Origin: Raillietiella orientalis
Taxonomy: Eukaryota
Direction of reading: 5' to 3'
DNA: 64,000 nt
NCBI GenBank assembly: GCA_036172245.1
Contig: JAYWIR010000056.1
Location: forward strand, 1 to 64,000
In this document: one piece after another, positions 5,831 through 52,900 of the stretch
Layout of the letters: each line of letters begins with the position of its first letter
Position numbering within the stretch: position 1 is the stretch's first letter
Position numbers and translations under genes: made by a program
The notes under the pieces: model-generated
Databases searched by the model: none
Told to the model about the DNA's origin: nothing
Seen by the model: only the letters and a program-made list of their open reading frames with translations

Positions 5831-8571
5831 ACGCTCCGGAATCTCCAGGACTTGGATCTTTTTAAGAAATCGGTCCGGGAGTTCTGCGAGCAGTTCCCCC
5901 TGGACCGCCTGCCCTCCGGATACGGCGAGGGTCCTCGCAACCATCGGGCCTATTTACAGGCCCGTAGGTACGAGCGAACCCCTAATGTCCGTCGCCTGGC
6001 CGAGTACCGCGCCGGGGCCGAACGCCAATCCTGGCAATCCGGGTCGGCCAGCTTTCTGGGCGACCAGGGCCGGGAATGTTCGTCCCCGGCGTCGGTACGG
6101 CATCTCGTGCGGAGTTATTATTCCCGCTTCGTTTCGGTCAGCCAGAGTGAGGCTCCTTCCGAAAGGAAGAGACCTTAGGAATTTGAACAACTGGCGTCCG
6201 ATCACGATTGTGAATACGTACGCCAAGTTGATTGCCGGGCTATGGGCTTCGCGTCTGGGGCAGGTGCAGAATCCATAATTAGCCCGGAGCAGACATATGC
6301 TGTTCCCGGGCGAAGTATGGATGCCAACCTCTTCTTCGCGAGCACATGGATGCACGCGCAGAGGTGTCAAAAGGAAGGGAAAGGAAAAATCGGCAACCCC
6401 ACTTTGGGGCCGCCAGCAGGGCAGGGAATGGACTCTGGGGCGCGGAAGGGGGCGTTAGCGCTCGCAGTCGATCTCCATAAGGTGTTCGACTGTGTTGATC
6501 AGGGGCTTTTGTTGGAGCTCCTGGGTCGCATGGGCTTCCCACCCTCCTTGATTACCTACCTGCCTTCTTGCTGGCGGAATGCGATTATTTCCGTCTCTTT
6601 CAGCAGTCAGAAGGTGCATGGCGTGCCGGTGCGGGGGGGCATAAGGCAGGGAGATAGCCTCAGTCCCCTGCTCTTCAGCACCTACTTTGAGTTGGTGCTG
6701 AGAGCCTACAGGGTGACTTTGGCCTCCTTGCCCAGCTCGTGCCTCGGTACGCCAGCCGTAGAGGCGTATGCCGACGATCTTCTGCTCCTGTTACCTATGT
6801 CCACCTCGGCGAAGGCGGTCGGAGACTTCTTCGATCTGCTCAGCCGTGGGACCGGACTGCAGGTCAACAGGGCGAAGTCGTCGGTGGTGCCAGTAGGTGC
6901 GGCGTGGGCAGGGCAGCAGGACTGGGTCCGTCTGGGGATCCCCACGGCGAGGTGCCTCAAGTTCCTTGGTGTGCCGTTGGATGACTGCTCCCTTGCGGAA
7001 GCGTGGTCTAGCTGTCTTCAAAAAGTTGAGACGGCGATCGGCCCGTTCCTGGAAGGCAACTTTTACTTGCCGGAACGGGCCGCGGTTTGTAACGTTTTTG
7101 CGGCCCCCATTCTCCGCTTCTTGCTTTTTGTTTGCTCCGCTCCCAGAGAATGCAAAAAGAGGACAAAGGACCTCCTCCGCATAGCCCTTTGGGGCAAGGG
7201 GAGGCCCCGAGTCTCTCTGAAGGACTTGTGCGCTCCGCGTCGGGACGGCGGCCTTGGCCTCCTGACGCTGGAGCGCGTAGAAATCCAGCTGCGGTGGCGA
7301 ACCCTCGCCATCGCAGCGAAGATGTGGAGCACCCCTTGGTGCGTTCCGACTTGCCTTCTCGCCAGGCGTGTGTCCCGATGCGAAGGACTCGCGTCGTTTC
7401 TTCTGTGCCCTGGCCGGAGGATCCGAAGATGCGGCCTTATGCTCGGACGCATAGCAACCCTGGCGAAGACGAACGGTTGGATGGTTTGTGGCCCCACCAA
7501 CTCCTCTGCCTGGTTGGAAGAGTCTGCTGGCACATGGGCTAAGCAGCACCGGAGGAGTGAAAACAATATGAACTGCCTGCGAATCGGCCCATACGCCAAC
7601 CGCGCCCTGCGGGAAATACTGGAATTTCCCCGCAGTCGCAGGTAGGCGTTGACGACCATCCTTGCTACGGCGATGCCCTACATCCTGAGGGCGCTTCAGC
7701 ATCGCCAGAAGCCGAGGTGGCAAGTCACCTGCCAGATCGCAGGCAGGGAGATGTTAAGCGGCTGGACCACAGGAGAACTGGCGGACGCCACGACCCCGAG
7801 CGTCCAGCCGCGTGGATTGATGAGATGGGGCGAGCTGCTCGCCATCCCTACGGATGTGCTGAAGTGGCCCCCGGTACTAAAGGAATCCAGGATCCTGCCC
7901 CTTATGTGGCAAGAGTCGGCGTTGCTACTGCTGCACTGGGGATTACCCTGCAACGCCCGCCGTTTCCACTGGACAAGGGGAACTGTGGATCCTTAGTGTG
8001 TCAGGTGCGGAGAGCGGGAATCGCTCTTCCAATTAATTGTGGACTGTGCTGCCATCCGACCCCTCTAGGAACGGTTCGGGGCGACCCTCGGGCTCCCTAC
8101 GGGCAGCACTCCCAGAGACGTTCTTCGGCCCTTCTTCGTGAAGGACGCACTGCAGCCAGCCGCAGCCATCGCAGCCTTGTGCTGTGTCCGTGGCATCGTG
8201 GCGGCATGGAGCGACGCCAATAACGAAGGAGTGGGTCCACACGCGAGGGATGTCATTTCATACGCCCAACTCTTCATGCGGAGAGCTGCCGGATGGTCTT
8301 AACTGGGGAATATACGGACGGACCTCGAGGGCTTCCTTCAACGGATGGGCCCTCCTCACAGCGTTTAGTGATCCCTTCCCTGCCCTCCAACCTCTTTTGT
8401 TTGTTTGCGTTTTTATTTTTACTTTTGTTTTTCCTCATCACCTTTCGTTGCCGAGGAGTGCCACACCGGGCTGCGTTCCGGCGTCCCGGTAGGTCCTGTG
8501 CATAAGGCCGTGAGCGAGTCCTGGTACCGTGATTGTAGAGTTTTTCATTAATAAACGCCCCGGGCGTACCA
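5831..8571 (+). mobile_element. Family A copy A1, right part (linker, RT, C-terminus, 3'UTR), internal deletion near 6120
   Basis: FKKSVREFCEQFP, WRPITIVN, DLHKVFD, QGDSLSP, YADD; ends AATAAACGCCCCGGGCGTACC. Confidence 0.9.
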
Positions 8572-9692
8572 GCGTGGCAACTTCCACCCAGGCGTCGGAG
8601 GATAAAACCGCGAAAGACGCAGGAGGGGAGGAGAGATGGCAACTGGTTAAGGTGGGGAAAGAAAAAAAGAAGATTCTGGGAGAGCAAAAGTCGGAGAAAA
8701 AAACTGCCGGCAAAAAGAAAAAAGCCGCGCCGCTTTCAAAAAAACTCCGCAAGTGCTCGGTGGCATTGGAACGCTTAGCTGTTCCTTCGGAGTTCGCCCG
8801 CGGCAATGTTCAGCAAACAGCTGATGGGGTCGCGATCGAAACTAGCGTGGACGAGCTCACTCTAAGTTTAGAGGATGAGACGCGAGACTTGCGCTCCGAA
8901 AGCGAGGACGCCGCGTCCGATAAGGTCGCGGAGGAGCCCGCGGCAACGTTGGCAGGCAGCGATGACGCGTCTTTCGAGAAGGCCGCGGAGAAACTCGCGG
9001 CAACGCTTGCCGAGCACGAAACCCTGTCGCTTAAGGGCGTCCGCAGGCCGGCTCCAAAGAAAATGCCTCCCGCAGGTGAGTCCGATCGGGAGGCCGGAAA
9101 CTCATCATCCTCCGCGCAGGCATCTCTTCGAAAGTCAGGACGTAAGTCCCAAACACCCAAGAGGTGACCTCCCGTTTCGAACGAGGAGGAGAAGCCGGAA
9201 GCCGAAGGCAGCGTGGGAAACCCGAAGGGGGAACTCCCACGCTCGGAAGCCGGCGCACAGGCAACGCCTATGAAGGAAGGTGAGCAGGGTAACGAAGCCA
9301 ACCCTGCATGCGCAGAACCCGAAAAGCCCGCCCCTATGGAGGAGGGCGATCAGGTAGGCGCGACCACACCTTCGGGCGATGCGCCTGACGCGCCGACACC
9401 AAAGGAGGAGGAGGATCAGGTGCTCCACGCACCGACAGTCCGCCTCCAAGCGTCCCGCCCCAACAGGTGTCGGACGCCGCACTGCCACTTTCCCAGGATT
9501 AACACCTGGGCTCGCTTGTCGCCGTCGGATACGCGTGGCCTGTTGGAATGTCAACGGGCTGCGCGACGACGGCAACAGACGAGAAACGGCCGACACCCTG
9601 CGTGAGTTCGACCTGGCCCTGCTGCAGGAGATCCACGTGATCACCTCGGCAGACGTCCAGGAGATCGAGACGATCGCGGGGGTCGACTGTTT
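8572..9692 (+). mobile_element. Family A copy A2: ORF1 C-terminal half and APE N-terminus
   Basis: KCSVALERL..FEKAAEKLAA (ORF1); ACWNVNGLRDDG..LLQEIHV (APE); ends at GTCGACTGTTT. Confidence 0.85.
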
Positions 9693-13600: not shown

Positions 13601-13689
13601 CTGCACACATGAAGATAACTGAATAGAAAATATCAGCCGATCATAGGAATAGAAATCACGAGAATTCTTATTTATTAACCCAACATCGG

Positions 13690-14447
13690 CCCCCGACGCC
13701 TTGGGATAGTGGTGCCCTCGCTTTGGGTTGGCAGGAGACAGCGCTGCTTGTGCTCCATTGGGGACTTTTGAGCAGAGCACGCCCGTCTCACTGGACATTG
13801 GGGAAATTGGATGCCCATTGTACAGAGTGTGGGGAAAGGGAAACCTTCCCCCACTTACTAATCGAGTGTGTTGCCCTCCGCCTCACGTGGGATGGACTCT
13901 CGTCGGCCATAAACGGACCGGTGGGCGACCCTAAAAATATTCTTCGGCGCCTCTTGATGCAGAACTCCCTGCCAGGTACCGCGTGTGTTGCAGTTCTCTG
14001 CTGCATACGGGGAATATTGGACAAGTGGAACGCGTCAATAAGAGGCCGCAGTAGTCGGAATGCCATCCACTGGGCAGTCATCTTCATGGAGAAGGCTTCC
14101 CGTTGGCGCCGGCTGAGTAAAATTCTGCCAGCACTTGTTCGCATCCGAAACCAGAGGCAGAGGCCTCCCCTCGGCGAACCGTGATCTCTTCCCTTTCCTC
14201 CTTACCCCATAAACATTGTAGCCCAAGCGTTTTTACTTTATTTTTGTTTTTATTTTCTCTTTTTCCCGTCCCCTTTGCCAGTGGAGAAGGCCTTCCCGGC
14301 ACTCAAGTCGGAAAAAACAAGTGCATAAGAAATAGGAACAATGTGTTCTGACAGGAACACAAATACAATTAATTAACAATTGACAGCAATTAATAACTGC
14401 TAATATGTTTTTTATATAATAAAAGCCCCTGCTTACCTGGGTGAAGG
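13690..14447 (+). mobile_element. Family C copy C1, 5'-truncated, with 16-bp TSD ATTAACCCAACATCGG (13674-13689 / 14448-14463)
   Basis: ORF2 C-terminus CTECGERETFPHL..RPPLGEP; terminal AATAAAAGCCCCTG-CTTAC-CTGGGTGA; exact TSD. Confidence 0.92.
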
Positions 14448-14569
14448 ATTAACCCAACATCGGTCAAAATTTTGTCTTCAATACAGGAAGAGTTTAAATA
14501 TTGCTTCAAGCCAGAGCTTGGAGCATAACCTTTTTTAAATTTATCTATGGCTTCAGGCGAAATCGTGCG

Positions 14570-21790: not shown

Positions 21791-21936
21791 AATTTCAAGC
21801 TTTTATCTTTATGTTTTGGATCAATTATGTAATATTTACCGCTCACCGCTTTAGTAAAAATTATTGACTTTCCAGTGTTGCCTAATATGACAATTCTAGG
21901 ATCAAATTTTCTTGACTCTGACAACAGGAAGCTAAT

Positions 21937-22088
21937 CTTTCACCCGAGTAAGCCGGGGCTTTTATTATTTCAAGAACACTTTTGCAATTATTAATTGCTG
22001 TCAATTATTAATTAATTGTATTTGTGTTCCTGTCTGAACACACTGTTCTTATTTCTTATGCACTTGTCCTTTCCGACTTGAGTGCCGG
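21937..22088 (-). mobile_element. Family C 3'-tail-only copy (~150 bp)
   Basis: Reverse complement matches the C1 3'UTR (~14296-14447) and ends AATAAAAAGCCCCGG-CTTAC-TCGGGTGAAAG. Confidence 0.85.
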
Positions 22089-26065: not shown

Positions 26066-27892
26066 GGTCAAGATGGAGAAGGCCCACCAGTTGATGCTGT
26101 AGCTCAAGAATTGATCACTAACAAAGTGAATGAATTAGGACAAGCAGTTCTGGAAGCAAAGGATGATGAAGGTGAACAAATCTTAGTAAACAACCCTGAT
26201 TTACAGGAAGGAGTAGCAGAAAAGTCAAGAGAAAATCCCGGAAAGACAAAAGGGCCAAAAGGTGAGCAGGGTCCTCTGGGAGAAAGAGGCCCACAAGGTC
26301 CGGTAGGTAAAGATGGTCAACGCGGACTGCAGGGACCAAAGGGAGATAAAGGTGATAACAATGCACGACAGAACTTTACTCTGCAAAAAGAAGAAAAATT
26401 ACTGGAAGACGTCTATGAAGCAAATATTGTTTCGAATAACAAGACCATGGCTACCTTACCAAAAATAGGTTACTACATGCTTAATAATCAATTGGTCATG
26501 CATAATTATGTTACGAAAGAGGAGTTGGCTATTCCCAGAGATTTCGATTATTTAAAAGTTATTAAATTTGGCAGTGGTTTTAGCAGTGGTGATTATAAAT
26601 TGACCTTTTGTAACGTATTTGGTAATGAGTTTTTTGAGTATAAGAAATATGACCCACAGTGTTCAAATGTTTCAGATGAATATAAGTTCATAAGTTTAAA
26701 TTGTGCGAAAAAAGAATATCTTTCACCCGGGTTTTTCACCCAGGTGAGCCAAGGCTTTTCTTATTAAAACTTTTTACAAGAAAAAATTCTATAATAAAGT
26801 GCTTTTTCTTTTTCACTGTTTTGAATGATTTTTTTCAGCCGCAACACGTTTCGACTGTCTTGGGGCACTTGTCCTTACCGACCCATAGGCCGATGAGATC
26901 CTCCACATTGGCGCAGGGGAGGGAAAAACAAAAATAAACCAAAAAAAAAAAAAAGGCCTTGGAGGGGCCAATGTTTATTGGGAAGGGATCACGGTTCGCC
27001 GAGGGGAGGCCTCTGCCTCTGGTTTCGGATGCGAACAAGTGCTGGCAGAATTTTAATCAGCCGGCGCCAACGGGAAGCCTTCTCCATGGAGATGACTGCC
27101 CAGTGGATGGCATTCCGACTACTGCGGCCTCTTATTGACGCGTTCCACTTGTCCAATATTCCCCGTATACAGCAGAGAACTGCAACGAACCGGCACCCGG
27201 GACCTGGCAGGGAGTTCCGCATCAGGAGGCGAGGAAAAATATTTTTAGGGTCGCCCACCGGTACGTTTATGGCCGACGAGAGTCGATCCCACGTGAGGCG
27301 GAGGGCAACACACTCGATTAGTAAGTGGGGGAAGGTCTCCGTTTCCCCACGCTCTGTACAATGGGCATCCAATCTCCCCAATGTCCAGTGAGACGGGCGT
27401 GCTCTGCTCAAAAGTCCCCAATGGAGCACAAGCAGCGCTGTGTCCTGCCGATCCAAAGGGAAGGTGCCACTGTCCCAATACGCCGGGGGCCACTTCACCT
27501 CCTCCGGAGGCATGCCGAGCAGCTCGCCCCAGCGCGCTGCTCGGCCCCAGAAAAAAGAATATAACCCCAATCTCAGCGAGTTATTTAGCCATCGGCCATC
27601 GTTTTTCATTACAGAAGGACCTGCTGAGCCAGATTCAGATAAATATTCAGCTGCTGTGTTCGAGTTGACGCATAATGGAAAAGGCAAAAAAATGGCTACA
27701 TTAATCGATGAATTTGCCTATTTTGATCAAAATGGCACATTTATGCATTGCAATTACCATGAAGAAACGAAATGCCGCTCTTATACTTCCACTGAAATTG
27801 GTAAAGAATATCAGATAACAGATACAGACAGTGAGTTTTACCTAACAGAGCACGACAACGTAATTATTCACACTATTCCAGCGTTAATTTAA
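26066..27892 (+). pseudogene. Wolbachia-type collagen-like (Gly-X-Y) protein, split by retroelement C3
   Basis: GPKGEQGPLGERGPQGPVGKDGQRGLQGPKGDKG; frame ..CAKKEY|NPNLSELF.. is restored on removing 26720-27562. Confidence 0.8.
26720..27549 (-). mobile_element. Family C copy C3, 5'-truncated, 13-bp TSD GAAAAAAGAATAT (26707-26719 / 27550-27562)
   Basis: ORF2 C-terminus nearly identical to C1 (..RPPLGEP); exact TSD. Confidence 0.92.
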
Positions 27893-37076: not shown

Positions 37077-38909
37077 GCCGACAGAATGACGCTGGTCAAC
37101 CTGCTGCGCTCTTGTCCAGGTACGCCGTCCTTGGCAACCTATGCCGCTGACCTGCTTCTCCTGTTACCCATGACCACCCCGGCGTCCAGTCTCGAGGATT
37201 TCTTCGAGCTGATTCGCCGTGGAGCGGGCATGAGCGTAAACCGGAGCAAGAGCGCGGTCGTTCCAGGGGGGCAGTCCGACTGGATCCGCCTGAGCTTCCC
37301 GACCTCCACGTCTTCAAAGTACTCGCGCGTCCCTCTGGGAAACATCAGTCCAGTGGAAGCGTGGTCGGAATGCCTTCGGAAGGCTACGAGTGCTTTAAGA
37401 CCGTTCCATCTTGGCAGGTTCCTCCTGTCGGAGCGGGCCACCGTATGGAGCACCTTCCTTGCCCCCTCTTACGCCTCCTGCTTTTTATTTCTCCGCCCCC
37501 CTACTCGGACGAGCTCCAGGTGCAAAGTCTGTTGAGGAACGCTCTGTGGGGACCTGCGAGCTCCAGGATCCGCCTCAAAGACTTGGCGGCTCCACGTCGG
37601 GATGCCGGATTGGGCGTCCTGACGCTGGAGAGAATCGAGCTGCAGGTGCAGCTCCAGATGTTGGCCCTGTGCGCCAGCCTTTCGTCCACTCCGTGGTGCG
37701 CTCCCGCGCGCCTGCTGCTGCGGTGCTGCACTGGCAGCGATGGACTTCTCTCGCTGCTGCCAAACACGGAGCGCGCCACGAGAAGCTTCGGCTTCCCGTT
37801 GAAACCACTGTACCGGCTCCTGGTAGCCCACGCATGGATCTCCTGCCGCCCAACGAACTTTGACGCATGGCGGCAGGAACCTTTGTATGCCTGGACAAGG
37901 CAAACGATGTTTCCCTTTTGGAACTCCGTCAACCTGTGTCCGTACTTTACGGTAGAGAAGGTTCTAAATGACCATGAGAAGTGGAGTCGCCTGGACGGCA
38001 CGCCCCTCGCCAACGCGCTGTTAGCCATCGGGGCAAGTGATGACAGCTGCCTACCGGTGAGATGGGAGGTCGCCTGCACCATCGCTGCAGAAACCCCACC
38101 CATGGGCGGATGGAGGACTAGCGAGCTGGCAGACGTCCCACGCCTCGCCACATCTCGAAGGGACTCCTTCGGTGTAACGAACTTTAGAATGTGCCCCCCG
38201 AAGAACTTGTGGTCCCTCCCTCCTGCTTGAACACTTTTGTGTTTCCCCTTTCTTGGAAGCAGAACGTCATCATGCTGGTGTAATGGAATTTCCACTCCAA
38301 CCAGCGGACGAACCGTGTTACCGAGGGAATTGTCTCCCCGAATTACGAAAGGTGAGGAAAGGTGGAAACGCTACCGCACCTGCCCTTGGACTGCGGTGCC
38401 CACCAAGGACTGTGGTGGAGGCTGGCCTCAGCTCTCCTGCTCCAAGGGGACACTGCAAGGAATCTGATGGGCTGTTTCTTCACGCCAGGCGGCTTGTCCT
38501 TTGGTGCTGTTCTTGCAACGGTCTGTTGCACTCGCGCCATCGACAAGGCCTACCGAGACTTGGAGAACCTGACCATTCTTCGTCAACTCACTGGAATAGC
38601 TGACCTGAACATGACGTCGGCTTCCGAGTGGGTCCATCTAACAGAGGGCGTTAGGAGCGGGATCGCCGGCATCCACCGCCGGTTTTGAAGAAAAGGAACG
38701 GCTCAAACCAAAGATCCCTGTCCCCTAGCCTCCCGATATCTTCATTTCTATTTTTTTTATGTGTATTCGTGGTCTTCTCCTTCCCGTTGCGGAGTTTCGC
38801 CTTACCGACCTGCGTGTCGGGATCCCTCCCTTCGTTTTTTCTGTGTCCTTTGTCCGGGTACCCTGTTCCCGGATAGTTCAGCAACAAACGCCCCGGCGCA
38901 CCGTGTGAG

Positions 38910-39737
38910 AAACAGCCGGTTCCACGCGATCGTTTCGATCTCCTAGACGTCTGCTGCGGCGATCACGTGGATTTCCTGCAGCAGGGCCAGGTCAAACTCG
39001 CGCAGGGTGTCGAGTGTATCCCGTCTGTTACCGTCGTCGCGCGACCCGTTGACATTCGGACAGGCCACGCGGTTCCGACGGCGACAGGCGAGCACAGGTG
39101 TTATTCCTGGGAAATCGGCGGTGCGGCGTCCGCCACCTGTTGGGGCGTGACGCTTGGAGGGGGAGGTGCATCAAACACCTGCTCTACCTCCTCCATGGAT
39201 GCCGGCGTGTCCGGTTCCTCTCTTGAAGGTGGTGTCGCGCCTACCTGGTTACCCTCCTCCATGGGAGCGGGTTTTTCAGGGTCGGTGCACGCGAGGGGGG
39301 CTTTGCTCCCCTGCTCAACCTCCTCCATGAGAACCGCCCGCTCGCCGGCTCTCGAGCGTGGCAGATCCCTCTCTAGGGTTCATTTGCAGGGGTCTTCCTC
39401 ACCGGAGCCGGCCTTTGTACGGCCTTGCGTGAGTTCTCACGCTGGGTCAGCGTGGTCGCGAGCTCCTCCGCCGCCTTTGCAAAGGCGCCTCCTGGCTTCG
39501 ACCTACGGCGCGGCTACCATTGTGCTCCACGTCCTCGCCGGCGGCGAGAATGATCCAGGAGAAGTTGACTCTGTGTCTGTAGGCTGCGGGGGTGGACTTG
39601 CCTCCCCCACACATACATCCATTGCGGTGTCCTCTGGCAACGCCGCCTTCGGACACCTACGATGTGCACACACAAAACACACAAGAAAAACTCTCCTACT
39701 ACTCGCTGGCGGAGCGCAGAAAAAACACGTCCGCTCA
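38910..39737 (-). mobile_element. Family A copy A4: 5'UTR, internally deleted ORF1, APE N-terminus
   Basis: 5' GAGCGGACGTGTTTTT at 39721-39736; APE VNG..REFDLALLQEIHV. Confidence 0.8.
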
Positions 39738-39756
39738 CGAAGAGCGGGATTTCGGG

Positions 39757-40648
39757 TTACCACCCGGTCACGCCGGGGAGTTTATTTAAACTCTACTAAG
39801 ACGTGGTACAGGCTCCACTAACAGTCAGCACTACACCGGACCTCCAGGGACGCCGGGACGCAGCCCGGCGTAACTCTCCTCCACAGTGGAGGGGGATGGG
39901 GGACACAACAAAAAGAAAAATAAAATATAAGGGAAACAAAGAAAGTTGGGAGGGACTGGAAGGGATCACTGGCCACCGGGAGAAGAAAGGAAGCCCTTCA
40001 GGTCCATCTGCATTCTTCCCAGCTGAGGCCATTCCGTTGCTCTCACTAGAAAGCGAGCAGCTTATGGGATGACTTCCCTGTCGTTAGCATCATCTTCTTT
40101 GTCGCGGACATCGCTCAAAGCCGCCACGATGCCAAGGATGCAGCAAAGTGCTGCAAGGACTGCGGCAGGCTGCAAGGCATTCCGCACGAAAAGAAGCCGT
40201 AAAACGTCTCTGGGCTCGCTGCCCACCGGGAGACCGAGGGTTATCCCAAAACGTTCCCATAGGGGTCGGAGGGTAGCACAATCAACAATAAGGTGGGGGA
40301 GCGAGTCCCGCTTTCCACACCTGGCACACTGAGGATTCACAGCTCCTCTCGTCCATTGGAGGCGGCGTGAGTTGCAGGGTAGACCTCAATGCAACAGCAG
40401 CAGCGCCGACTCTTGCCACTTAAGGGGCAGAATCCTTGATCCATTTAATACCAGGGGCCACTTCAGCTCATCCATCGGGACGGCGAGCAGCTCGCGTCAT
40501 CTTGTTAATCTACGCTCGGGGTGTTGGCGTCCGCTAGCTCTCCCATGGTCCAACCGCTCATTTTCTTCTCTCTGTCTGTGATTCAACAGGAGACTTGCCA
40601 CTTCGGCGTCCGGTCGCTGGAGAGGGTTCTCCGTAGGAAGGGCATTGA
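39757..40648 (-). mobile_element. Family A copy A5, 5'-truncated and internally deleted
   Basis: CARCGKRDSLPHLIVDC; 3'UTR with AATAAA and terminal hairpin. Confidence 0.82.
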
Positions 40649-42982
40649 GGAAGGGATTTGGGGTTGTCACCCGGGTATGCCCTGGGCGTTTCTTGAAAAA
40701 ACTCTACATGAACGTGGTACGAGGCCCCACTGACGGCCACACAACACCGGACCTGCCGGGACGCCGGGACGCAGCCCGGCGTGACGCTCCTCGGCAGTGA
40801 AGGGGGATAGGGATCAAAACAAAAAGAAAAATAAAGATAAGTTAAACAAAAAAAGAGTTTGGAGGGAGGGGAAGGGATCACAATCCACTGGGAGGAGGGC
40901 CCATCCTTCGCAGGATGCCCTCCAGGTCCATCTTCATGCTTCCCAGATGGGGCCATCTCGCAGCTCTCCGCATGGAGCAGACCGCATACGGGATGACATC
41001 CCTCGCGTGTGGACCCACTCCTTCGTTGTTGGCGTCGCTCCATGCTGCCACGATGCCCTGGATGCAGCAGAGGGCTGCGAGGGCTGCGGCGGGATGTAGG
41101 GCGTCCCGCACGAAGAGGGGCCGAAGAACGTCTCTGGGCGCGCTGCCCATTGGGAGCCCGAGGGTCGTCCCGAACCGTTCCCACAGGGGTCGGAGGGCAG
41201 CACAGTCAACAAGTAGGTGGGGGAGCGATTTCCGCTCTTCACATCCGGCACACTCAGGCCTTACACTTCCCCGCGTCCAGTGGAAGCGGCGCGCGTTGCA
41301 GGGTGGACCCCAGTGCAACAGCAGCAGCGCCGACTCTTGCCACTTCAGGGGGAGAAGCCTGGATCCAATTAATATTGGGGGCCACTTCAGTCCATCCGTC
41401 GGGATGCCAAGCAGCTCGCCCCTTCTACGAAGTCCACGCGGGAGGGCACTCGGGGTCGTGGCATCTGCCAGTTCTCCCATGGTCCAGCCGCTCATCGTCT
41501 TTTCCTTGCCTGCGATTCGGCAGGAGACTTGCCACTTTGGCGTACGGCCGCTGGTTAAAGCCCTTGGTAGGAAGGGCAGGGTCGAAGCTAGAGGGGTAGT
41601 CTCCGCCCACGTGCTCCTGGCGGGACACTCCAGAGTAGTCCGCAGTGTGCAGCAGGCGTTGGGGCCGAATCGCAGGCGGTTCCAGTCCGGGGAAGTCTGG
41701 AGGTTCAGCTTGGCCCACTTGGCAACGGATTCCTCCAGTCAGGCGGAGGAGTTGGCGGGGCTGCATACCGTCCAGCCGTTGTCTCTCACCAGGGCTTCCA
41801 TGCGCCCAAGGAAAAGGCCGCATCTTCTGTCCTTCCTGCCAGAGCAGAGAAGGTACGACGCGAGTCCTTGCGTCCTGGACACACGGCAGGCGAGGGTGCG
41901 GGCCGGAACGCACCAAGGGGTGCTCCATGACTTCGGTGCGATGGCGAGGGTGCGCCATCGCAGCTGTATGTCCAGGCGCTCCAGCGTCAGGAGGCCGAGA
42001 CCGCCGTCCCGACGAGGAGCGCATAAGTCATCTAGAGGCACACGTGGCCTCCCGCTGCCCCAGAGGGCGATGCGGAGTAGGTCCTTTGTCCTCTTTTTAA
42101 TGTCACGGGGGACGGGGCAAACAAAAAGCAGGGGGCGGAGGATGGGAGCCGCGAACGGAGCCGTTCCACACCGCGGCCCGTTCAGGCAGAAGGAACTTGC
42201 CTTCCAGGAACTGGCCGATTGCCAACTCTACCTTTTGGAGACGACCTGACCAGGCTTCTGCGAGGCAGAAGTCCCTTAACGGGACACCCAGGTACTTCAG
42301 GTACCTGGCCGCGGGGATCCCCAAGCGGATCCAGCCAGGCCGTCCGACCTACGTCGCACCCACCGGTACGACCGACGACTTCGCCTTGTTTACCCGAAGT
42401 CCAGTCCCACGACTTAGCAGGTCGAAGAAATCCTCGACTGCGGCTGCCGGGGCGGACATGGGCAACATGAGCAGAAGGTCGTCGGCGTATGCTGCTACGG
42501 CGGGCATGCCGGGGCACGAGCTGGGCAGGGCAGCCAAAGTCACCCTGTACGCTCTGAGCACCAACTCAAAGTAGGTGCTAAAGAGCAGGGGACTGAGGCT
42601 ATCGCCCTGCCGTATGCCCCGCCGCACCGGCACGCCGTACACCTGTTAGCTGGAGAAAGTGATGTTAATTATGGCGTTGCGCCAGCAGGAGCGCAGGAAG
42701 GAGAGAAGGGAGGGTGGGAAGCCCATGCGACCCAGGAGCTCCAACAGTAGCTGCTGGTCAACGCAGTCGAACGCCTTATGGAGATCGACCGCGATCGCTA
42801 GGGCCCCCTTCCCAGCCCGGGTGTCCATTCCCAGCCCAGCTGGCGGCCCCAAAGTGGGGTTGCCATTCTTACCGCCAGTGTCATTTAGGCAGCGCTGCAC
42901 ATGGAACCATGTGCTCGCGAAGAACAGGTTGCCATCCATACTTCGCCCGGGAACAGCGTATGTCTGCTCCGGGCTAATTAGA

Positions 42983-44514
42983 CCGAGTGCTTTAAGACCA
43001 TTCCACCATGGCAGGTTCGTCCTGCCGGAGCGGGCCACGATATGGAACACCTTCGTTGCCCCCCGCTTGCGCCCCCTGCTTTTTGTTTGCCCGCCCCCCT
43101 ACTCGGCCAAGCTCCAGGCGCACAGCCTGTTGAGGAACGCTCTGTGGGGACCAGCGAGGTCCAGGATACGCCTCAAAGACTTGGCGGCTCCGCGTCGGGA
43201 TGCTGGCTTAGGCATCCTGACGCTGGAGAGAATCGAGCTGCAGGTGCAGCTTCGAATGTTGGCCCTGTGCGTTAACCTTTGGTCCACTCCGTGGTGCGCT
43301 CCCGCGCGCCTGCTTCTGCGGCGCTGCACAGGCAGCGATGGACTTCTGTCGCTGCGGCCGCACACGGAGCGCGCCACGAGAAGCTTCGGTTTCTCCTTGA
43401 AACCGCTGTACCGGCTCCTGGAAGCCCAGGAATGGATGTCCTGCCGCCCAACGAACTTTCAAGCCTGGCGGCAGGAACCGTTGCATGGCTGGGCAAAGCA
43501 CCAAGATGTTTCCCTCCTGGAACTTCGTTGCGCTCACCTCTCCCCGTACTGCACGGTGGACGAGGTGTGCAACAGCCAGGAGAAGTGGACCCGCCTGGCC
43601 GTCACGCCGCTTGCCGACGCACTGTCAGCCCTCAGGGCAAGAGATGACAGCCGCGAAACGGCGAGATGGGAGGTCGCCTGCACCATTGCAGGAACAACAC
43701 GACCTATTGGCGGCTGCAGGACTTGCGAGCTGGCGGATGCCGCCACGCCTCGCCACATACCGAAGGGACTCCTTCGGTGGAGCGAACACTTGAGTGTGCC
43801 CCCCGAAGAACTTGTGGTCCCTCCCTCGTGTTTGAACACTTCTGTGTTCCCCCTTTCGTGGAAGCAGGACGTGATTATGCTGGTGCATTGGGGTTTTCAC
43901 TCCAACCAGCGCACGAACCTTGTTTCCGGGGGAGTTGTCTCCTTAAACTGTAAGCGGTGCGGGGAAGTGGAAACGCTCCCGCACCTGCTCTTGGACTGCG
44001 GTGCCCTCCTAGGACTGTGGCGGAGGCTGGCCTCAGCTCTCCTGCACCAGGGGGACACCGCGAGGGATTTGATGCGCCGCTTCTTCACGCCAGGCGGCCT
44101 GTCCTTAGGTGCTGTTGTTGCAACCGTGTGTTGCATTCGCGCCATCGACAAGGCCCACCGACAACTGGAGAAGATGGCCATCCTTCGTCAGCCTACCGGC
44201 TTAGCCAGCGCCAGCATGTCGTCGGCAGCCGATTGGGGCATCTTCCAGAGAGCGTGAGGAAGGAGATCGCCGGCATCCATCGCCGGTTCTGAAAGGAAGG
44301 AACGGCAGAACCAAAGACCCCTGTCCCCTGCCCTCCATATCTTTATTTTTATTTTTTTCTACGGTGTATTTGTGGTCCCCTCCCTCCCGTTCCGGACTTT
44401 CGGCATACCGACGTGCGTGTCGGGGATCCCACCCCCTTCGTTACTCTATGTCCTTTGTCCGGGAACTTTGTTCCCGGATAGTTTGTAATAAACGCCCCGG
44501 CGCACCCGGGTGAT
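42983..44514 (+). mobile_element. Family B copy B3, 5'-truncated
   Basis: LRPFHHGRF..CKRCGEVETLPHL..IAGIHRRF; terminal AATAAACGCCCCGG-CGCAC-CCGGGTGA. Confidence 0.88.
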
Positions 44515-46128
44515 AAACAGTCGACCCCCCGCGATCGTCTGGATCTCCTGGACGTCTGGACAGGAGGAGGAGGGACAGGTGCCTCGAGCACCTGGTCCCC
44601 CCTCCTCCATCGGTGACGGCGCGTCGGGCGAGTGACCCTCAGGTGGGGTCGCGCCTACCTGTTGGCCCTCCTCCATAGGGGTGGGCTGTTCAGGGTCCGC
44701 GACGGCAAGGGGGACTTCACCCCCCTGCTCACCCTCCTCCATGGGAGTGTCCGACTCGAGGACTTCCGCGCGTGGGAGTTCCCCCTCCGGGATTCCCACG
44801 CTGCCGTCGGTTTCCTGCTTCTCCTCCTCGCTCGTGGAGGGGAGGCGCCTCCTCGGCTTTTGGGACTTGCGTCCCGTCTTCCGAGGGGGTGCCTCCGACG
44901 AGGAGGATGCACTTCCGGCCCCCAGGTCGCACTCACCTGCGGGGGCCTTCTTTGCCGGAGCCGGCCTTCGCACGGCCTTGCGTGAGGGGTTCTCACGCTC
45001 GGCCAGCGTGGCCGCGAGCTCCTCCGCCGCCTGAGCGAACGCGGCGTCCTCGCTTTCGGCGCGCGCTTCGCGCGGCTCACCCTCTGTGCAAACAGAGGGT
45101 TCGCCGTCGCGAACCTCGGGCGCGGCGGAAACGGCGTGGGGAGGCTCGTCGCCCCGGGTGGCAGCCTCGGGAACGGCAATCCGTTCGAGTGCCACCGTGC
45201 ACTCGCGAAGAGTTTTCGAGCGCGGACCGGGTTTTTTCGGTTTCGCGCTCTTTTCTCTGTTCGCTCTCGCGGGTTCCACGGGGGGAACTTTTTTCTCTTT
45301 TCTGGCCTTTAATAGCTTCCATCCTTCTTCCTCTCCCGCGTCTTCAGCGGGTTTTTCCTCCGACGCCTGGGTGGGAGGAACAGGAGATGGCGGCTGGGGC
45401 CGGCCAGTTTCGCGATAAGGTCTTTCGACCTTTTTTCCTTGTTTTGCCTGTGCCTTTTTGGCAGCAGGTGGCACCGGGATGGGGCGTTTGGGGCACACAC
45501 GACGAACGTGTCCCTTAACCCCGCACAAGTGGCACTCGATATTCGGGCACCGCTTGCGCAAGTGCCCTACTGCATCGCAGTAGCCACAATAGCGGGGTTT
45601 CCCCACGTACCAGAGGTCGACGGATTCCTTTGCGACCTCCAGTTTGTGGGGCAAGCCACTACCCTCATTAACCGTTACACGCGCTGCAGCCTGGCCTCCG
45701 AAATGGCTATTAAAGCCTTCGAAAATGGTAGGCTTTGGCCACAACGCGTGTATCTCACCGTATTTGCTTAATTCATTACTCACCGCAGATCGCGTCATGC
45801 GGTTCGTAATGCCGATTAGATGGACCACTACGAAGCGGTCCATGCTAACCGGCAGGATCTTACGGCCATCCACATTCAGCGGGGTGTTAATGAGGCGCTG
45901 TGCTAAGGCTTCGTCTTTGCAGACGACTACGCGCTGCTCCCCGCTGAGTACGGAGAGGCCGTCAAGATCCTCCTCTCGTACAGGGAAATCCTGCAGTGCC
46001 CTACTAAAGGCTCGGGCGGTGCGACCATCAAACAGGGATCCTACCTTATAAACCAGAGATGGTTTATATCCGGAGGCCCTGTAGGCCGCTTGCTCTGCCA
46101 AGGTTTCCGCGCCGAGCGCGGAAACCAT
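44446..46128 (-). CDS. Family A ORF1p (two CCHC knuckles), C-terminus fused by deletion to an APE remnant and antisense B3 tail
   Basis: CGYCDAVGHLRKRC, CHLCGVKGHVRRVC; ends ..DVQEIQTIAGGRLF|ITRVRRGV. Confidence 0.8.
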   Translation of the reverse strand: MVSALGAETLAEQAAYRASGYKPSLVYKVGSLFDGRTARAFSRALQDFPVREEDLDGLSVLSGEQRVVVCKDEALAQRLINTPLNVDGRKILPVSMDRFVVVHLIGITNRMTRSAVSNELSKYGEIHALWPKPTIFEGFNSHFGGQAAARVTVNEGSGLPHKLEVAKESVDLWYVGKPRYCGYCDAVGHLRKRCPNIECHLCGVKGHVRRVCPKRPIPVPPAAKKAQAKQGKKVERPYRETGRPQPPSPVPPTQASEEKPAEDAGEEEGWKLLKARKEKKVPPVEPARANREKSAKPKKPGPRSKTLRECTVALERIAVPEAATRGDEPPHAVSAAPEVRDGEPSVCTEGEPREARAESEDAAFAQAAEELAATLAERENPSRKAVRRPAPAKKAPAGECDLGAGSASSSSEAPPRKTGRKSQKPRRRLPSTSEEEKQETDGSVGIPEGELPRAEVLESDTPMEEGEQGGEVPLAVADPEQPTPMEEGQQVGATPPEGHSPDAPSPMEEGGPGARGTCPSSSCPDVQEIQTIAGGRLFITRVRRGVYYKLSGNKVPGQRT

Positions 46129-46366
46129 GGCACTCCACGTCCTCGGCGTTGCCAGGGATGATTCCGGGGCGGATGCCCCTGATTCTGTGGGTCGTGGGGG
46201 GGGGGCTAGCCTCCCTCACTCCTACCTCCATCGTGGTGTCCTCTGGCAGCGATGCCATCGGACACCAACGATATGAAACAGCACACAACCAAAAAAACCC
46301 GCTTTCCGGTACTCGTACGCGGAGCGCCGGAAAAACACGTCCGCTCTCGAGGAGAGGGAGTTGGGG

Positions 46367-47931
46367 TTATCACCCGGGTACGCCCGGGGCGTTTATTTGT
46401 AAACTCTACATGCGTGGTACGAGGCCCCACCACGGCCGTAAACACAGGACCTGTCGGGACACCGGAACGCAGCCCGGCGTGGCACTCCCCGACAGCGAAA
46501 GGGGATGAGGGGAAAAAAACAAAAAGAAAAATAAAGAAATAAAAAAACAAAAAGAGTTTGGAGGGCAGGGTAGGGATCACTGGTCGCTGTGAGGAGGGCC
46601 CATCCTTCGAAGGAGGCCCTCGAGGTCTCTCCGCATACCTCCCAGCTGGGCCATGCGGCAGCTCTCCGCAAGAAGCGTTGCGCGTATGGGATGACATCCC
46701 TCGCGTGTGGACCCCCTCCTTCGTTGTTGGCGTCGCTCCATGCCGCCACGATACCACGGACGCAGCACAAGGCTGCGATGGCTGCGGCTGGCTGCAGTGC
46801 GTCTTTTACGAAGAGGGGCCGAAGAACGTCTCTGGGGGTGCTGTTCGTAGGGAGCCCGAGGGTCGTCCCGAACCGTTCCCAAAGGGGTCGGAGGGCAGCA
46901 CAATCCACAATAAGGTGGAGGAGCGACTCCCGCTCCCCGCACCTGACACACGCAGGATCCACAGCTTCCCTCGTCCAGTGGAAGCGGCGCGCGTTGCAGG
47001 GTAGACCCCAGTGCAACAGGAGCAACGCCGACTCTTGCCACTTGAGGGGCGGGATCCTGGATTCCTTCATCACCGGGGGCCACTTAAGCTCATCCCTGGG
47101 GATGGCGAGCAGCTCGCCCCATCTTACTAATCCTCGCGGCTGGATGCTCGGGGTCGTGGCGTCTGCCAGTTCTCCTGTTTTCCAGCCGCTTATCAACTTC
47201 TCCCGTCCCTCGATGCAGCAGGAGACTTGCCACCTTGGCGTCCGGCTGCTGTGAAGTGCCCTCCTCAGGAAGGGCAGCGCCGTAGCTAGGCAGGTCGTCT
47301 CCGCCCACGTGCATCTTGCTGGACTCTCCAAGAGATTCCGCAGCGTGCAGCGGGCGTAAGGGCCGCATCGGAGACGATTCCAGTCTCGTGGCTTCTCTGG
47401 TTAACCACTGCCCACGTTCCAATATTCTCCTCCAGCCAGGCGGGGGAGTTGGCGGGGCAGCAAACCATCCAGCTGTTCTCCTTGGCCAATGTCGCCATGC
47501 GCCCGAGCAGTAGGCCGCATCTTTGCATCTTCCGGCCAGGGCTCAGAAGAAAATATGCGAGTCCATCGCACCGGGACACACGGCTGGCCAGGAGGCGGGC
47601 CGGAGTGCACCAAGGGGTGCTCCACATCTTCGCTGAGATGGCGAGAGTTCGCCACCGCAGCTGCTTCTTCACGCGCTCCAGCGTCAGGAGGCCAAGACCG
47701 CCGTCCCGACGCGGAGCGCACAAGTCCTTCAGAGGGACTCGGGGCCTCCCCTTGCCCCAAAGGGCGATACGGAGGAGGTCCTTCGTCCTCTTCTTGGATT
47801 CCACGGTGGGGGTGCAAACAAAAAGCAAGGGGCGGAGGATGGGAGCCGCGAAGGCGTTCCAAACTGCGGCCCGTTCCGGCAAGTGAAACTTGCCTTCCAG
47901 TAACGGGCCGATCGCCGTCTCGACTTTTTGG
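46367..47931 (-). mobile_element. Family A copy A7, 5'-truncated, 13-bp TSD GAGGGAGTTGGGG (46354-46366 / 47932-47944)
   Basis: ORF2 post-RT region and C-terminus; exact TSD. Confidence 0.9.
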
Positions 47932-48024
47932 GAGGGAGTTGGGGAAGGGGTCCGTACGCGTACGTACGGACTGAGAGGACGTACGTACGCGCTCGACGTT
48001 ACTCCAGGACCCTCGATGTACACA

Positions 48025-49316
48025 GGCTAGCAGAATAACGTGCGGGAGCCGTGAGACAAGCCTGGCAATCGGGGTCGGCCGGCTTGCTGGACGACCAGGG
48101 CTGGGAGCACTGGGCTTCCGCTCAGGTAAAGGGGATTATAAAAAAATTTTATTTCTTCCTTTACGCGAGAGCGCCTCCAGAGCGGGATGTCGCGTGACTC
48201 TTGCTCCCGGAAGGGGCCTTTACGATCGGGGAGGCGGACAGATAGAACCTTGATGAGCCTTTCACGGTGGGTGAAATGATTACCGCCATCGGAAAGCTCA
48301 AGAGGCGCAAGGCTCCAGGGAGGACGGCCTGCCAGTTAAATTTTTTCAATGTTTTGAGGCAGGGCTCACTCCCCTGGTGCAGAAACTCACCTTGCTAATG
48401 AGCGAGACAGGCAACCGCCTGAGAGTTGGCTTGAGACCCATTTCAAGAAAACAGGTTTTACTGGGTCCTGGTGAGTAACACTTCCGTGGCTCCCTTCTCC
48501 ACCTTCTGCTTTTTGTTCGTTTCTTGGAACAGAGAAGTAGGAAAAGGACGAAGGACCTCCTGAGCATCGACGTTTGCGGCAAAGGTAGGTCCCGAGTCCG
48601 GTTGAAAGGCTTGTGCGCTCCGCGTCGGGAAGGCGGTATCGGCCTCCTGCCACGGGAGTGGCTGGGGCTTCTGCTCTATTTCAGGATTCTTGCCCTTGCA
48701 GCAAAGCTATGGAGCACCAACTGGTGCGTTTCTGCACACCTCGCAGTGCAGTCCAGTCACCGGCATCGCGGGACTTGAGTCTTTCGTTGCAGTCTTTAAC
48801 CGTCACATCTCCCATTGCGGATTGCAGCTTCGAAGGGTGGCCACCGTTACGAGGAAGGTCTCAGGATGGATCTCCTGCCGCCCCGCGATGGGTAGCTCCT
48901 GGCTACAGAATACCGGTCGCACCTGGGCAAGTAGTCAGGAGCAAGGCACGGAACAGGTGCGAAGATTCCTGTTCGTGCGCAACAATCGTTTCACGCTCCA
49001 AGAGATCCTGGAGGATCCTGGAAAAACCGCATGGGCAGGAAGAACTTCCTTCGCTACAGCGCTGCTCTCTTACAGGGAGCACCTGAGCAGCACCATCGCG
49101 GCAAAATGGGAAGTTTTGATGAAAATCCCCGGGAAGGAGAAGGGGCTCGAAAAATGAAAATCGGATAAGCTGACCAGAGATGCGACCCCGAGTACAACCT
49201 CAAATGGTCTTTTGCACTTAGCGATTCGCTGGATGTTTCGGTGGAACACCTGGTATGGCTCCCGGTGCTCATGGACACGCGCATCTTCCCCATGAAGTGG
49301 CAGCAGTCGGTGCTGT
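48025..49316 (+). mobile_element. D-like element remnant D3 (linker/RT N-terminus, deletion, C-terminal region)
   Basis: QAWQSGSAGLLDDQG..LDEPF..KAPG; LCAPRREGG; FPMKWQQSVL. Confidence 0.8.
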
Positions 49317-49905
49317 TTCACACCCAGGGTGTGCCGGTGCGCTTATTTCTTCACAAAACAAACGAACAAACATGTGTAGGGCTATAGACCCTACAACATC
49401 CGATAAAAATTCTGAACTTGCCGAGTAGTCAGCGCTCAGGTCGGCGACTTCGACTCGGCAGCGGAGGGGGAAGAGACAAACAAAAACACAAAAAGAAAGC
49501 ACTATTTACAAAAGCAAGGGGTACGGGGGAGGGATCACGTTCCACTGGGTCGTCCTCTGCATCTTTCCTAGGATACTGGCAAGTTCAGTCCGCATACGTC
49601 CCACATGGGAACATTCGGCTGCCGTCCTCAGGAAGCGCAGGACGGAGCAGATTGCGTCCCTATCGTTCTGTCCAACAGGGAACGTTAATGTCCCTCGATA
49701 CGATCCCATGGTACGATGCAGCATCGCCCTATTCATCTCGAGTGCCATGATAAGAAGGACGAAGATGAAGAATACGGGGACCAAGGTCCCCGCCATGAAC
49801 ATCTTTCGAGGGATCATCAGGCGGGAGATTGGGGTCAGGAATTGCGGTAAGAAACCCGCGTGGACTTACCGCTAAATCTTGCAAAAATCGCGGAAGTAGC
49901 AAACG
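49317..49905 (-). mobile_element. Family E, 5'-truncated 3' end
   Basis: ..ELASILGKMQ.., GTGATCCCTCCC after the ORF, T-rich tract, terminal AATAAGCGCACCGG..CCTGGGTG. Confidence 0.7.
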
Positions 49906-52900
49906 CGAGTGCACCGCCCTATATCCCACAGTAACCCATTCCGAGAAAACCACCCCGATCATGACATTGCAAACGCTACGTGCGCAATTGTGAACTGTGG
50001 TAATCCACAGATGAAGTACGAATTACGTTGTTATTGCCGTGGAAACTGTAAATTTTGTCGTTAGTTAATTTAGCCCACCGCATGACAGTTTAGGGAACAA
50101 AAACCACAGTCACAAAAAGTGCAGAGAGTAGGGCAGGAAATCGCAGACATGCTTTTAGGGATGCTTAAGATCAGTTTTTGATTTGATGGGGAACCTATTG
50201 CCTTCCCAGTACCCTTTGTTTGATCTCGATGATCTGTGCTTCCACTTTCGAGGTGAGAGATGCCCTCTCACTTGCTTGCCGCGCCTTAGATTTCTTTCTC
50301 GTCATTCCTCTTGACTTCCCTGGTTTTTGCATGCACACCCATTTCTGTCGTTCGGCAGGATACAGATGGTCCTCCGAAGAAATGAATTTTGTTGTGTATT
50401 TCCTCACGTAAAGAACTCCGAGTAAGGAGTATTCGGTCATTTTTCTTTGATATGCAGCATGGTTTTATGGAATCCGCAGCATCCGAGTTCCTTCATATAC
50501 CAGACATCGACAGTTCGTCGTCGATCTTTATTATGTGGGATCCAACCGAATGTTCCGTGGGTGGTCAAGCTTGCTGCGGAAAGGCCTCTAAATCATCATG
50601 GGAAATGTTGGAGGGACAAGGCTCCACGATAGAGCGTGGATGATGCCATGTTTGGAATCTTCGACGAGCTCGGCGCTCTTCTCCAGGCGCACAGTCTTCC
50701 AGTAAATGATCCCTTGCTCCGCAAAAGAGCTCACTACCATCTGCATTGGATAAGGTTTTTGGTAACCGCTGTGAGAGGTCTGCATCTTCCCTGGTAAGCC
50801 CGAAGAGTTGTTGGAGAAAGTTTTATCAGCTCCTACTGCTGAATACCTGCGCCACTTTCTCAAAAGAACGCGCTGTTTGAGATTAAGCAGGCTTACGTCA
50901 TAAGTCACGGGAGACTTGCGAGCGGATGCTGAGTTCTGTCAAGAACTCAGCATCCGTTGCGTCCGACGCTGGTAGATAGGAGGCCACAGTCCATTATTGC
51001 GCTGATTCCACGAAAGGCTATTTAAACGAATGTCCTTAATTATATGATTCACAGTGTGGCAGAGACCACAGCCTGGCTATCAAGGCTGGTTCCCTTAGGA
51101 AGAGCTGCCTTGGTGAACTACTGAATCTCGACAAATGCACAAACTATCTCCAAACTTTGTCGAACATAAAGCATCTCCAAAACACGCGCGTACATACTAA
51201 GGTACAGATAATCAGTAAGTCTTGCAAAAAGAAATCTAGAAGCCTAGAATAGGGTCAACAACCCCATCCTAAGCATGAACCTCGAGTTTGTCTTCAGGAA
51301 GCTCTCGTCGATAGTAGCAGCTACTTTGCCAATAGTATGCACGGATGACCCTGCAGTGCGGAATTACTTTGACAAACTTCTGCCGCACATGTTGAATCCA
51401 GCAGCTTTGCTCGAAACTTTGCTGGTCATAAATACCGTCTCACTGTCCTGTTATCTGTAACGGACAAACTGTGTTTTCGCCTATATAATGGCACAAAGAT
51501 AAGGATGGTCATCACAGTGGTGTGGCGATCAGTTCTTCACACACGGAGGCGTTGGGTTGAGCAATTCAGTGGTCGCAGTGTCTTCCTGCGTCGGAATTGC
51601 AAAGTCAGAGATGCTAATGTGGTCAGTTTTTCCAGGCGGACACGAGCCAAAGTCCGGAACCGAATTCGCGCGTCTATCTCATGGTTTAGAGGTCTTACGT
51701 TTTGGTCCATTCATTCGGTATAGTTTCCTGCCTACTCCCAAATGAGGAAAACATTCTGAGCTGTTTGTGTTCTCTCGGAGACTGGATGGCAATTCGGCAG
51801 ATGCTCGAATGGACACCTTGGAAAAGATGAAACTGTGAGTGCAGTTTCGCATACTTTAGTGTCCGTGCAAATAGGGGATCGCGGAGAATTTCCACCTGCC
51901 GACGGCGGCGCAGGGCCCACTTCCTTGGTGTGCGGCCACTTGCAGCAAGTTGCAAGAGCGAAAGTCAACGAGAGCTTTTCGAGAACGCATTTCAAGAAGA
52001 AATATCAGCTTTTGGGGCTGCTGTCCATGGAGACGCAAAGAACCCATTGAAACCTTCACTTACATGCACCGTATCAAATGAAAAAGAAGGATCAACAACC
52101 ATCCATTCACCGCAGGCGTAGAGGAATTTCCAGACGTTTCGTTCTTTTGCAATTTTCTGAGTCCACTAGTGATATGGTTTTTCTCACAGATGTGGAAAAT
52201 CATCTGATGGAAACGTCAAATGAGTGGAAGAAGCGCATTCCACCTGGCTTCTTTCTAAAAAAAAAAACAAGGCTCTGATCTGTGAAAGAACACCATCCTC
52301 AGCGCCTCTTTTCTATTTCGAGGAAGGCATTCTTTCTTGTTGACAAGGAGCTGCAGTCCTGCTTGAGAACATCCAAAATTCAAGCGCTCTCGTGGCAAGC
52401 CTCTCTTACCACGATCAGAAATGTAATCAAAGATCATTACTCTCAGCTTGGCTCAAATTACTCGAACTCTTATTGAATCTCTTGTGCCTTTTCTGCTTAG
52501 CACAGGAGAGTGGATATCTGAGAGCCGGAGGCTGCTGTACCTAAAGGAATGCATTCGTGAATTACAGGGCACTTTTCTGCGTTTCGTTCATTTTATTACC
52601 ATCAACAGAGAAAGCCCGAAAGAAACTCTGAACATGAAGCAGCGAATAACACGGGCATCTCATCTCTCCATGGAAGAGCGATTCCAGCTGCAGGAACCAC
52701 AGTACAATGAGTTCAAAACTGCCATGTTCTACACAGCAGGAGGAATGAAGTGATTTCCAGAAACATTTTCCCTCTCTCGTTTTCTGGAAAGCCTTCGAAT
52801 GCGTATCGCATGCAGAACCTTCCAACCAAAGGTCTCGAGTCGTTGTGTGCGAGGGAAGCAGTTATCGGCAAATCACGACACCTTCACAGCAGTTAAGATG

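Follow-up and report, generated by a model that had tools for sequence, protein, structure and literature searches.

In the window analysed here, the first 64,000 nucleotides of contig JAYWIR010000056.1 of Raillietiella orientalis (GenBank assembly GCA_036172245.1, 210 Mb in 491 contigs, of which this is C56), four copies of a long interspersed element (LINE), named family A, lie head to tail on the minus strand and are separated by versions of one 13-bp sequence. This sequence is the G-F-G codon stretch in the linker between endonuclease and reverse transcriptase (RT) of the second open reading frame (ORF2) of the same LINE group, entered antisense, an identity that the preliminary description of this DNA had missed. 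The target has been reused in many hosts, the four copies originated separately, and their divergence forms a gradient along the array. We consider it likely that family A prefers this antisense site and that its new copies mostly enter the outer, 5' junction of a copy already in place, pushing the older ones inward.

Anatomy of the array

Read along the minus strand, the order is host flank, T1, A7 (truncated), T2, A6 (with its full 5' end), T3, A5 (truncated), T4 and A4, represented by its 5' end only. The four 13-mers, T1 to T4, are where the preliminary description had placed them, and rechecking of the sequence returned the same identities to the first. T1 (47932-47944), the outermost target copy and the duplication made by A7, is identical (13/13) to T2 (46354-46366), which lies between the 3' end of A7 and the 5' end of A6; T3 (40651-40663; 11/13 to T1) lies between the 3' end of A6 and the truncated A5, and T4 (39744-39756; 10/13 to T1) between the 3' end of A5 and the 5' end of A4. 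Full-length and truncated 5' ends both abut the repeat, as had been described, but the duplications are of about 13-16 bp at truncated family-A copies and of 10-11 bp, not 13, at full-length ones.

An intact copy of 5,659 nt (L038:863-6521) was used as the reference for all coordinates given here as ref. A7 (46367-47931, minus strand; ref ~4090-5659, 93% identity) is 5'-truncated, belongs to the youngest subfamily and carries no nested insertion. A6 (40664-46353, minus) has a complete 5' end, is missing ref 1801-2005 and 2048-3355, and is broken at ref 2047 by a sister element on the plus strand. Its 5' part (44517-46353, minus; ref 15-1800 and 2006-2047) contains the 5' end, ORF1 (77% identical to the reference) and a remnant of the apurinic/apyrimidinic endonuclease (APE) domain up to ref 2047, and its 3' part (40664-42980, minus; ref 3356-5659, 79%), of an older subfamily, runs from the RT to the 3' end. 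A5 (39757-40650, minus; ref 4756-5659, 73%) is 5'-truncated and belongs to a third, older subfamily. A4 (38912-39743, minus; ref 9-264, 1322-1423 and 1569-2047), the most decayed of the four, has kept the 5' end, a deleted ORF1 and the start of the APE; it is cut at ref 2047 by a sister element, and its remainder is lost.

Both sister elements belong to family B. The 3' part of one copy (42986-44516, plus) lies within A6, at the APE site ref 2047 and in antisense; the 5' part of this copy was lost together with part of A6. A second copy (37077-38911, plus) lies antisense in A4, also at ref 2047. These insertions hit A6 and A4 at one nucleotide, later than the A insertions and in the opposite orientation, and deletions took the middle of A6, the remainder of A4 and the upstream half of the host. 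Since the 3' end of A4 and that half of the host are gone, the array has lost its inner end, and the four-copy array at one target described earlier stands with this correction.

Host flank is retained solely at the outer 13-mer, T1. The flank (47945-48412, plus strand; ref 2759-3195, 66%) is the decayed ORF2 linker of a related LINE and runs on from the target codons; it reads EGVGEGVRTRTY and is homologous to AGFGERPRNERCY. A tblastn search with amino acids 303-442 of ORF2 matched 47919-48350, and the genome matches of the flank are around 80% identical, except for one segmental copy. Positions 48155-49946 of the window have a 97% segmental copy in locus L108. The GC-rich parts of the window are nested non-LTR (long terminal repeat) retrotransposons, and scans of the window with Tandem Repeats Finder, Rfam and ARAGORN detected neither a satellite nor an RNA gene or tRNA target.

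Family A is an L1-group non-LTR retrotransposon, with zinc knuckles in ORF1 and an APE-RT-CCHC arrangement in ORF2. The ORF1 of the reference copy encodes 553 amino acids with a zf-CCHC match just under the cut-off (E 5e-4), and its ORF2 encodes 1215 amino acids with Exo_endo_phos (APE), RVT_1 and weak zf-RVT matches in Pfam and a C-terminal CCHC motif. Human L1 ORF2p was the top solved-structure match to ORF2 (PDB, E 8.5e-52). Database homologues reach at most 31% identity over the whole ORF2 and at most 34% in the RT region, no named Zepp protein is among the homologue matches listed, and an atlas search with the family-A proteins returned generic APE-RT clusters only. In a quick RT tree, built with no Zepp sequence, 18 RTs of this genome formed one clade with a long stem (Shimodaira-Hasegawa-like approximate likelihood ratio support of 100), placed at a fork of low resolution beside a clade with an Alligator 'TX1' protein; the clade is joined firmly neither to Tx1 nor to L1, and this tree does not place it inside the Tx1-like clade. 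All 40 sampled family-A 3' ends have AATAAA, a GC stem-loop and then AA alone before the target, with no poly(A) tail. Mammalian L1 carries such a tail, and family A departs here from mammalian L1, not from the wider group. Copies at L155 (C49:72995), L129, L138 and L131 combine 5' leaders, bodies and 3' ends of different subfamilies, pointing to recombination or template switching, and 5' leader types were dropped as subfamily labels for this mosaicism.

Identity and specificity of the target

The G-F-G codons are kept in nine of the 12 APE cluster representatives long enough to include the linker. Empty sites, for which a search had been proposed, are present in intact copies: at 3229-3241 (minus) in the ORF2 of C1, a sister element of full length (322-5830), with codons A-G-F-G, and in the L038 reference copy; an empty homologous site, P-S-G-Y-G-E-G, lies at 5912-5931 (plus) in A1, an A copy on the plus strand. 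Taken alone the 13-mer is weak, with 37 matches in the window at up to 3 mismatches (2 of them exact) against 20.4 ± 4.4 in shuffles. Its positions are not due to chance: T2, T3 and T4 each sit between the 3' end of one element and the 5' end of the next, and T1 divides the 5'-truncated A7 from the host ORF2.

A 21-nt pattern from the 3' end gave 291 matches in the genome (control, 0), and the first 40 of the 100 listed, 25 long and 15 short copies, were analysed. By BLAST 16 of the 25 long copies were on target, and a further two by eye, but none of the 15 tiny ones. The hosts of the on-target copies differ (65-84% identical to the reference), and these insertions are therefore independent. 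Young A copies lie inside their own subfamily at ref 2731-2740 (C129, C90); family A inserts antisense into its own LINE group, its own subfamily included. All 30 A7-like loci examined end at the motif, in a search whose query included the junction. Other A junctions, where the preliminary description had proposed to look for the target, were searched with a 3'-to-5' junction pattern that gave 90 matches genome-wide; when sorted by eye, 60 were A-type head-to-tail junctions with the A target, two other recurrent types had 10 and 9, and 11 were of other kinds. The recurrent type with ten matches consists of a family-E 3' end, the family-E target and a single 5' end type (among them L068, near C26:3005687), suggesting that family E likewise stacks head to tail. 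On contig C26 (3.0 Mb), on-target copies are found in at least four separate places and short copies are dispersed.

Site specificity is a preference and not absolute, so that of the single 13-bp target proposed earlier a preferred site remains. Between seven and nine of the 25 long copies and all 15 tiny ones are at other sites, with unrelated duplications of about 13-16 bp. As in the on-target context, 15 off-target sites with a visible duplication have CC at positions -4/-3 in 10 cases and C at +1 without exception; no upstream run of this kind is present at the end of the element itself. These sites were hand-picked and are located in C-rich tracts, which counts against the explanation that we favour. 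The full C-rich motif has one match per strand in the reference, and the antisense match is the target.

It is conceivable, although we find it rather doubtful, that the preference is weak and is reinforced by selection, family A entering any C-rich motif, long copies surviving only in LINE-rich islands and G-F-G being merely the best match. The lack of tiny copies at the target, the long copies found off it and the loose C-rich motif that is all the off-target sites have would be in agreement with this. However, A-type ends in LINE islands are nucleotide-exact, with 36 of 98 at host ref ~2740 and 37 at the A 5' end, and only seven at other mapped LINE positions and 18 unmapped, in a sample enriched by design; moreover, the sister families hold different exact sites in the same sequence. 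Weak preference overlaps with the explanation that we favour, so that the probabilities given to the two need not sum to one, and under it, too, the upstream C-run would give rise to polarity. Selection against long off-target copies may also add to the enrichment produced by a true preference for the antisense G-F-G site.

Tiny insertions of 18-31 nt, made of the 3' stem-loop only and flanked by duplications of 14-17 bp, were observed at dispersed C-rich sites (L035, L042, L055, L060, L062, L064 and L065). A partner short interspersed element was considered for the short copies and rejected, most of those examined being 5'-truncated insertions of this size with duplications; five short copies of 68-122 nt have no clear duplication and are unexplained. 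The 3' end of copy A1 (1-321 and 5831-8580), at 8580, lies away from the target, within the ORF1 of a different copy and in sense orientation, and the related copies at L046 and L058 have in common a second off-target site, unmapped.

Order and mechanism of insertion

The copies A7, A6 and A5 are 17.7-24.1% divergent from one another and fall in three subfamilies, in support of separate insertions at one site. The preliminary description had predicted that divergence would rise in the order A7, A6, A5, A4 through addition at the 47932 end, and a monotonic age gradient in this direction was found by three measures, with host flank at the outer 13-mer only. Distances to the nearest sampled relative are 3.5, 5.1, 11.3 and 15.9%, respectively, and the best genome matches are 96% for A7, 94% for A6, 84-86% for A5 and 83% for A4 (the last over a different region). 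Private substitutions in successive pairs, outer versus inner, are 2.0 vs 3.5, 4.6 vs 6.3 and 6.3 vs 10.1%. In addition, T1 and T2 agree at a base that is different in T3; since A7 is truncated and was unable to bring T1 along, T1 would have been copied from T2, which most simply would place A7 after A6. A check for insertion polymorphism at 47932 had one run available (share 0.10; no RNA set listed), with short contigs mostly 90-95% alike, and no listed joint spans the site.

Elsewhere in the genome, of the 40 best A7-like copies 16 stood on the outer side of a listed junction and 3 (4 with a wider search interval) on the inner side (p = 0.002), and of the 40 best copies of the older A6-like type 2 stood on the outer side and 3 on the inner, each set including its own query. 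Pairwise dating was carried out on 20 adjacent pairs outside the window with shared regions, four further pairs without a shared region being left out, and among the pairs differing by more than 1 point the outer copy was the younger in six of seven. In a set of 13 pairs, those of the window among them, the outer copy came out ahead 11 times by nearest-relative distance and 11 times by terminal branch. A cross-subfamily decay score (outer favoured in 9 of 13 pairs) was set aside, as it penalises rare subfamilies. Identical 3' segments at two contig starts (L079 and L081, on C19 and C101) are probably an assembly or haplotype duplicate.

Several results speak against entry from the outer end. 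In the 20 non-window pairs the outer copy was closer to its relatives in only 14 and had fewer private changes in only 11 (sign test p = 0.41, Wilcoxon p = 0.049), many of these pairs being near ties, and the order is reversed at C90 (92 vs 56 private changes), C33 (224 vs 183) and C5a. Most arrays were found via A7-like copies, the densest-sampled subfamily, which favours outer copies that look younger. Within the window, A5 and A4 are compared over different regions, a single 391-bp interval being the basis of this step, and the last two bases of T1 were weakened as a proof of order, as they may be microhomology with the sequence of A7 itself. In full-length elements, moreover, mismatches at 1-2 of 10 bases between the 5' target copy and the 3' one are frequent. 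Polarity is well supported as a tendency and not as a strict clock; the array can be taken as the chronological record that had been claimed inside the window, and elsewhere there is a tendency with exceptions.

These results could also be read, although we think it unlikely, as site-specific insertion with no real polarity, where both target copies are used, the gradient is a lucky ordering and sampling inflates it elsewhere. The 11 of 20 pairs by private substitutions and the three reversed loci would fit, as would the varied upstream bases tolerated at five of the 15 off-target sites. Against this, a monotonic order of four copies in the stated direction is expected by chance once in 24, young copies stand 16 times on the outer side of a junction and 3 times on the inner, and the outer copy is the younger in six of the seven clearly different non-window pairs.

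It is very improbable that the array grew from one unit, with the 13-mer as unit border, through tandem duplication or unequal crossing-over. Amplification of this kind is present in the genome, where three copies 3.65 kb apart on C84 (116983-127945, L125-L126) share one off-target junction in ORF1 and look like a tandem duplication of a composite unit, but for this array it is refuted by subfamily placement, as the divergence of A7, A6 and A5, their three subfamilies and their different 5' truncation points exclude it. Hardly any credence is left for the 13-mer as an integral part of the A 3' terminus, since, although a C follows 40 of 40 sampled 3' ends and this single base may be part of the RNA or be paired to it, the motif varies with host type, is missing at off-target copies and is present empty in intact ORF2s.

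Under the explanation that we favour, a polar entry at the antisense G-F-G site, the family-A endonuclease would prefer a C-rich motif across the nick, roughly CCC(T/C)|C(G/C/A)CC(G/A)A on the element-sense strand, and in the LINE pool it would be matched best by the conserved G-F-G codons, read in antisense, of the ORF2 linker that A shares with its sister families. New copies would usually land backwards in the ORF2 of another LINE by target-primed reverse transcription, duplicating 10-15 bp. In this process the first nick is made at the border of the upstream flank and the duplication, and after insertion only the 5' duplicate has that border. The duplicate on the 5' side of the element would retain the host CCC(T) run before the nick, and the one on the 3' side would now follow the element end (...RYAA) without it. 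The off-target sites suggest that the endonuclease reads both sides of the nick, in which case the outer junction would stay a target and the inner one would weaken; because the run would be found at the 5' duplicate only, the next copy would mostly enter there and push older copies inward. Both the reading of the motif by the endonuclease itself and the lost upstream run as cause of the polarity are deduced from the sequences and would be the putative core of the mechanism. Target sequence in the RNA may help 5' joining, as hinted by the lack of poly(A) and the mismatched 5' target copies, a lead by analogy with what has been proposed for R1 (PMC2718515).

Sister families and known systems

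For the sister families, 134 3' ends were clustered by sequence and mapped on the reference. Recurrent sites were found for family B at ref 2047 (antisense, 5 of 6 ends), D at ref 2021 (antisense, 3/3), F at ref 2318 (sense, 5/5), C at ref 2659 (antisense, 4/4) and J at ref ~3550-3570 (antisense, 3 of 4). The hosts belong to two subfamilies for C and J; for F all are of the young subfamily, and the F sites could still share a common descent. The APE domains of these families are 46-89% identical to the reference.

Within the window, C1 (minus) is inserted antisense in the ORF2 linker of A1 with an exact 15-bp duplication, at a site reused on C5, C74 and C88. Family-B 3' ends at 9691, 38911 and 44516 lie at ref 2047 of different A copies, and likewise on C12 and twice on C28. 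A family-J 3' end at 56861 (plus) lies antisense at the KAFD motif of the RT, and many 5' ends at ref 3556, the family-J site, are in hosts of two subfamilies. Next to the array there is a plus-strand ORF2 piece (48463-49318), and the 3' end of another family near 49322 (minus) lies antisense at PMKWQQS codons. Related 3' fragments, 89% alike, are found in the AT-rich part (13688-14451, 21933-22088 and 26901-27491).

In tandem R1 arrays of Drosophila 28S ribosomal DNA (rDNA), new copies are stated to enter the target duplication on the 5' side of copies inserted before (Stage and Eickbush 2009, PMC2718515), so that the likeness to acquisition at the leader of clustered regularly interspaced short palindromic repeats (CRISPR) drawn in the preliminary description is not needed. 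R1 and family A have in common an APE-type LINE, copies split by a target duplication (14 bp in R1), full-length and truncated members and frequent off-target copies (PMC2718515); the target is a host rRNA gene in R1 and the element's own ORF2, antisense, in family A. A 28S rDNA target was not found for family A, with no Rfam match in the window and a target in ORF2. R1 arrays consist of near-identical copies under rDNA turnover, whereas successive subfamilies 18-24% apart are stacked by family A. More generally, double insertion at one site is a route to tandems (McGurk and Barbash, PMC5932611), and polar stacking is not new, being a known consequence of site-specific target-primed reverse transcription.

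Zepp in Coccomyxa/Chlorella and ZeppL in Chlamydomonas are L1-type elements that, like family A, target existing copies and build GC-rich nested clusters rich in 3' ends (PMC3446292, PMC8226300). Zepp forms one cluster per chromosome, at the centromere, whereas family A has its at least four places on C26; the available text of the same two papers mentions no fixed nucleotide site or antisense entry, although such a site may have been published for Zepp. Family A is thus like R1 in its stacking and like Zepp in choosing itself, and has neither the R1 target nor the single cluster of Zepp. In the Tx1 clade the targets lie in other transposons, at fixed sites for Tx1L and Tx1-Mar (PMC4494074, PMC1950540), Tx1L inserting in Tx1D, Tx1-Mar in Mariner-N4_AMi and Tx1-8_Crp in LTR elements (Kojima 2015, PMC4494074). 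Here too related families have different preferred sites in a transposon, one in opposite orientation, and tandem insertions around the target duplication are described for SINEU-3 (PMC4494074). Family A has the Tx1-like preference for a target sequence (16-18 of 25 long copies at one site), but the Tx1-clade targets are unrelated transposons and that of family A is the conserved coding sequence of its own LINE group. Cnl1 of Cryptococcus is a non-LTR element that also inserts within itself to give nested arrays, although in tandem, same orientation and at subtelomeres, and the available text of PMC9942834 contains no fixed ORF2 site. A literature search over titles and the starts of abstracts, with most subscription papers and supplements outside it, found no LINE with a fixed antisense site in its own ORF2, which does not show its absence from print.

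A tentative reading, which we regard as less probable than not, is that these lineages form a closed guild, each endonuclease having evolved to read a stretch of conserved codons, different for each, in the ORF2 of the guild itself. If this were true, the targets could not mutate away while coding for protein, and each insertion, mostly antisense, would knock out a relative or sibling, so that the guild would both build and limit its own territory. Its polar stacks would record which lineage was active when, making LINE competition readable from sequence.

The unusual part of these findings is the choice of target: a coding motif, conserved in the ORF2 of the element itself, is entered backwards, among relatives each using another such site. 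A LINE with its own enzyme gene as preferred landing site has a harmless target that is reproduced by every new copy. From stacked copies the order of insertion can be read without recourse to sequence divergence, which helps to date the succession of subfamilies, and close relatives with different exact targets are a natural series on how APE endonucleases gain and switch specificity.

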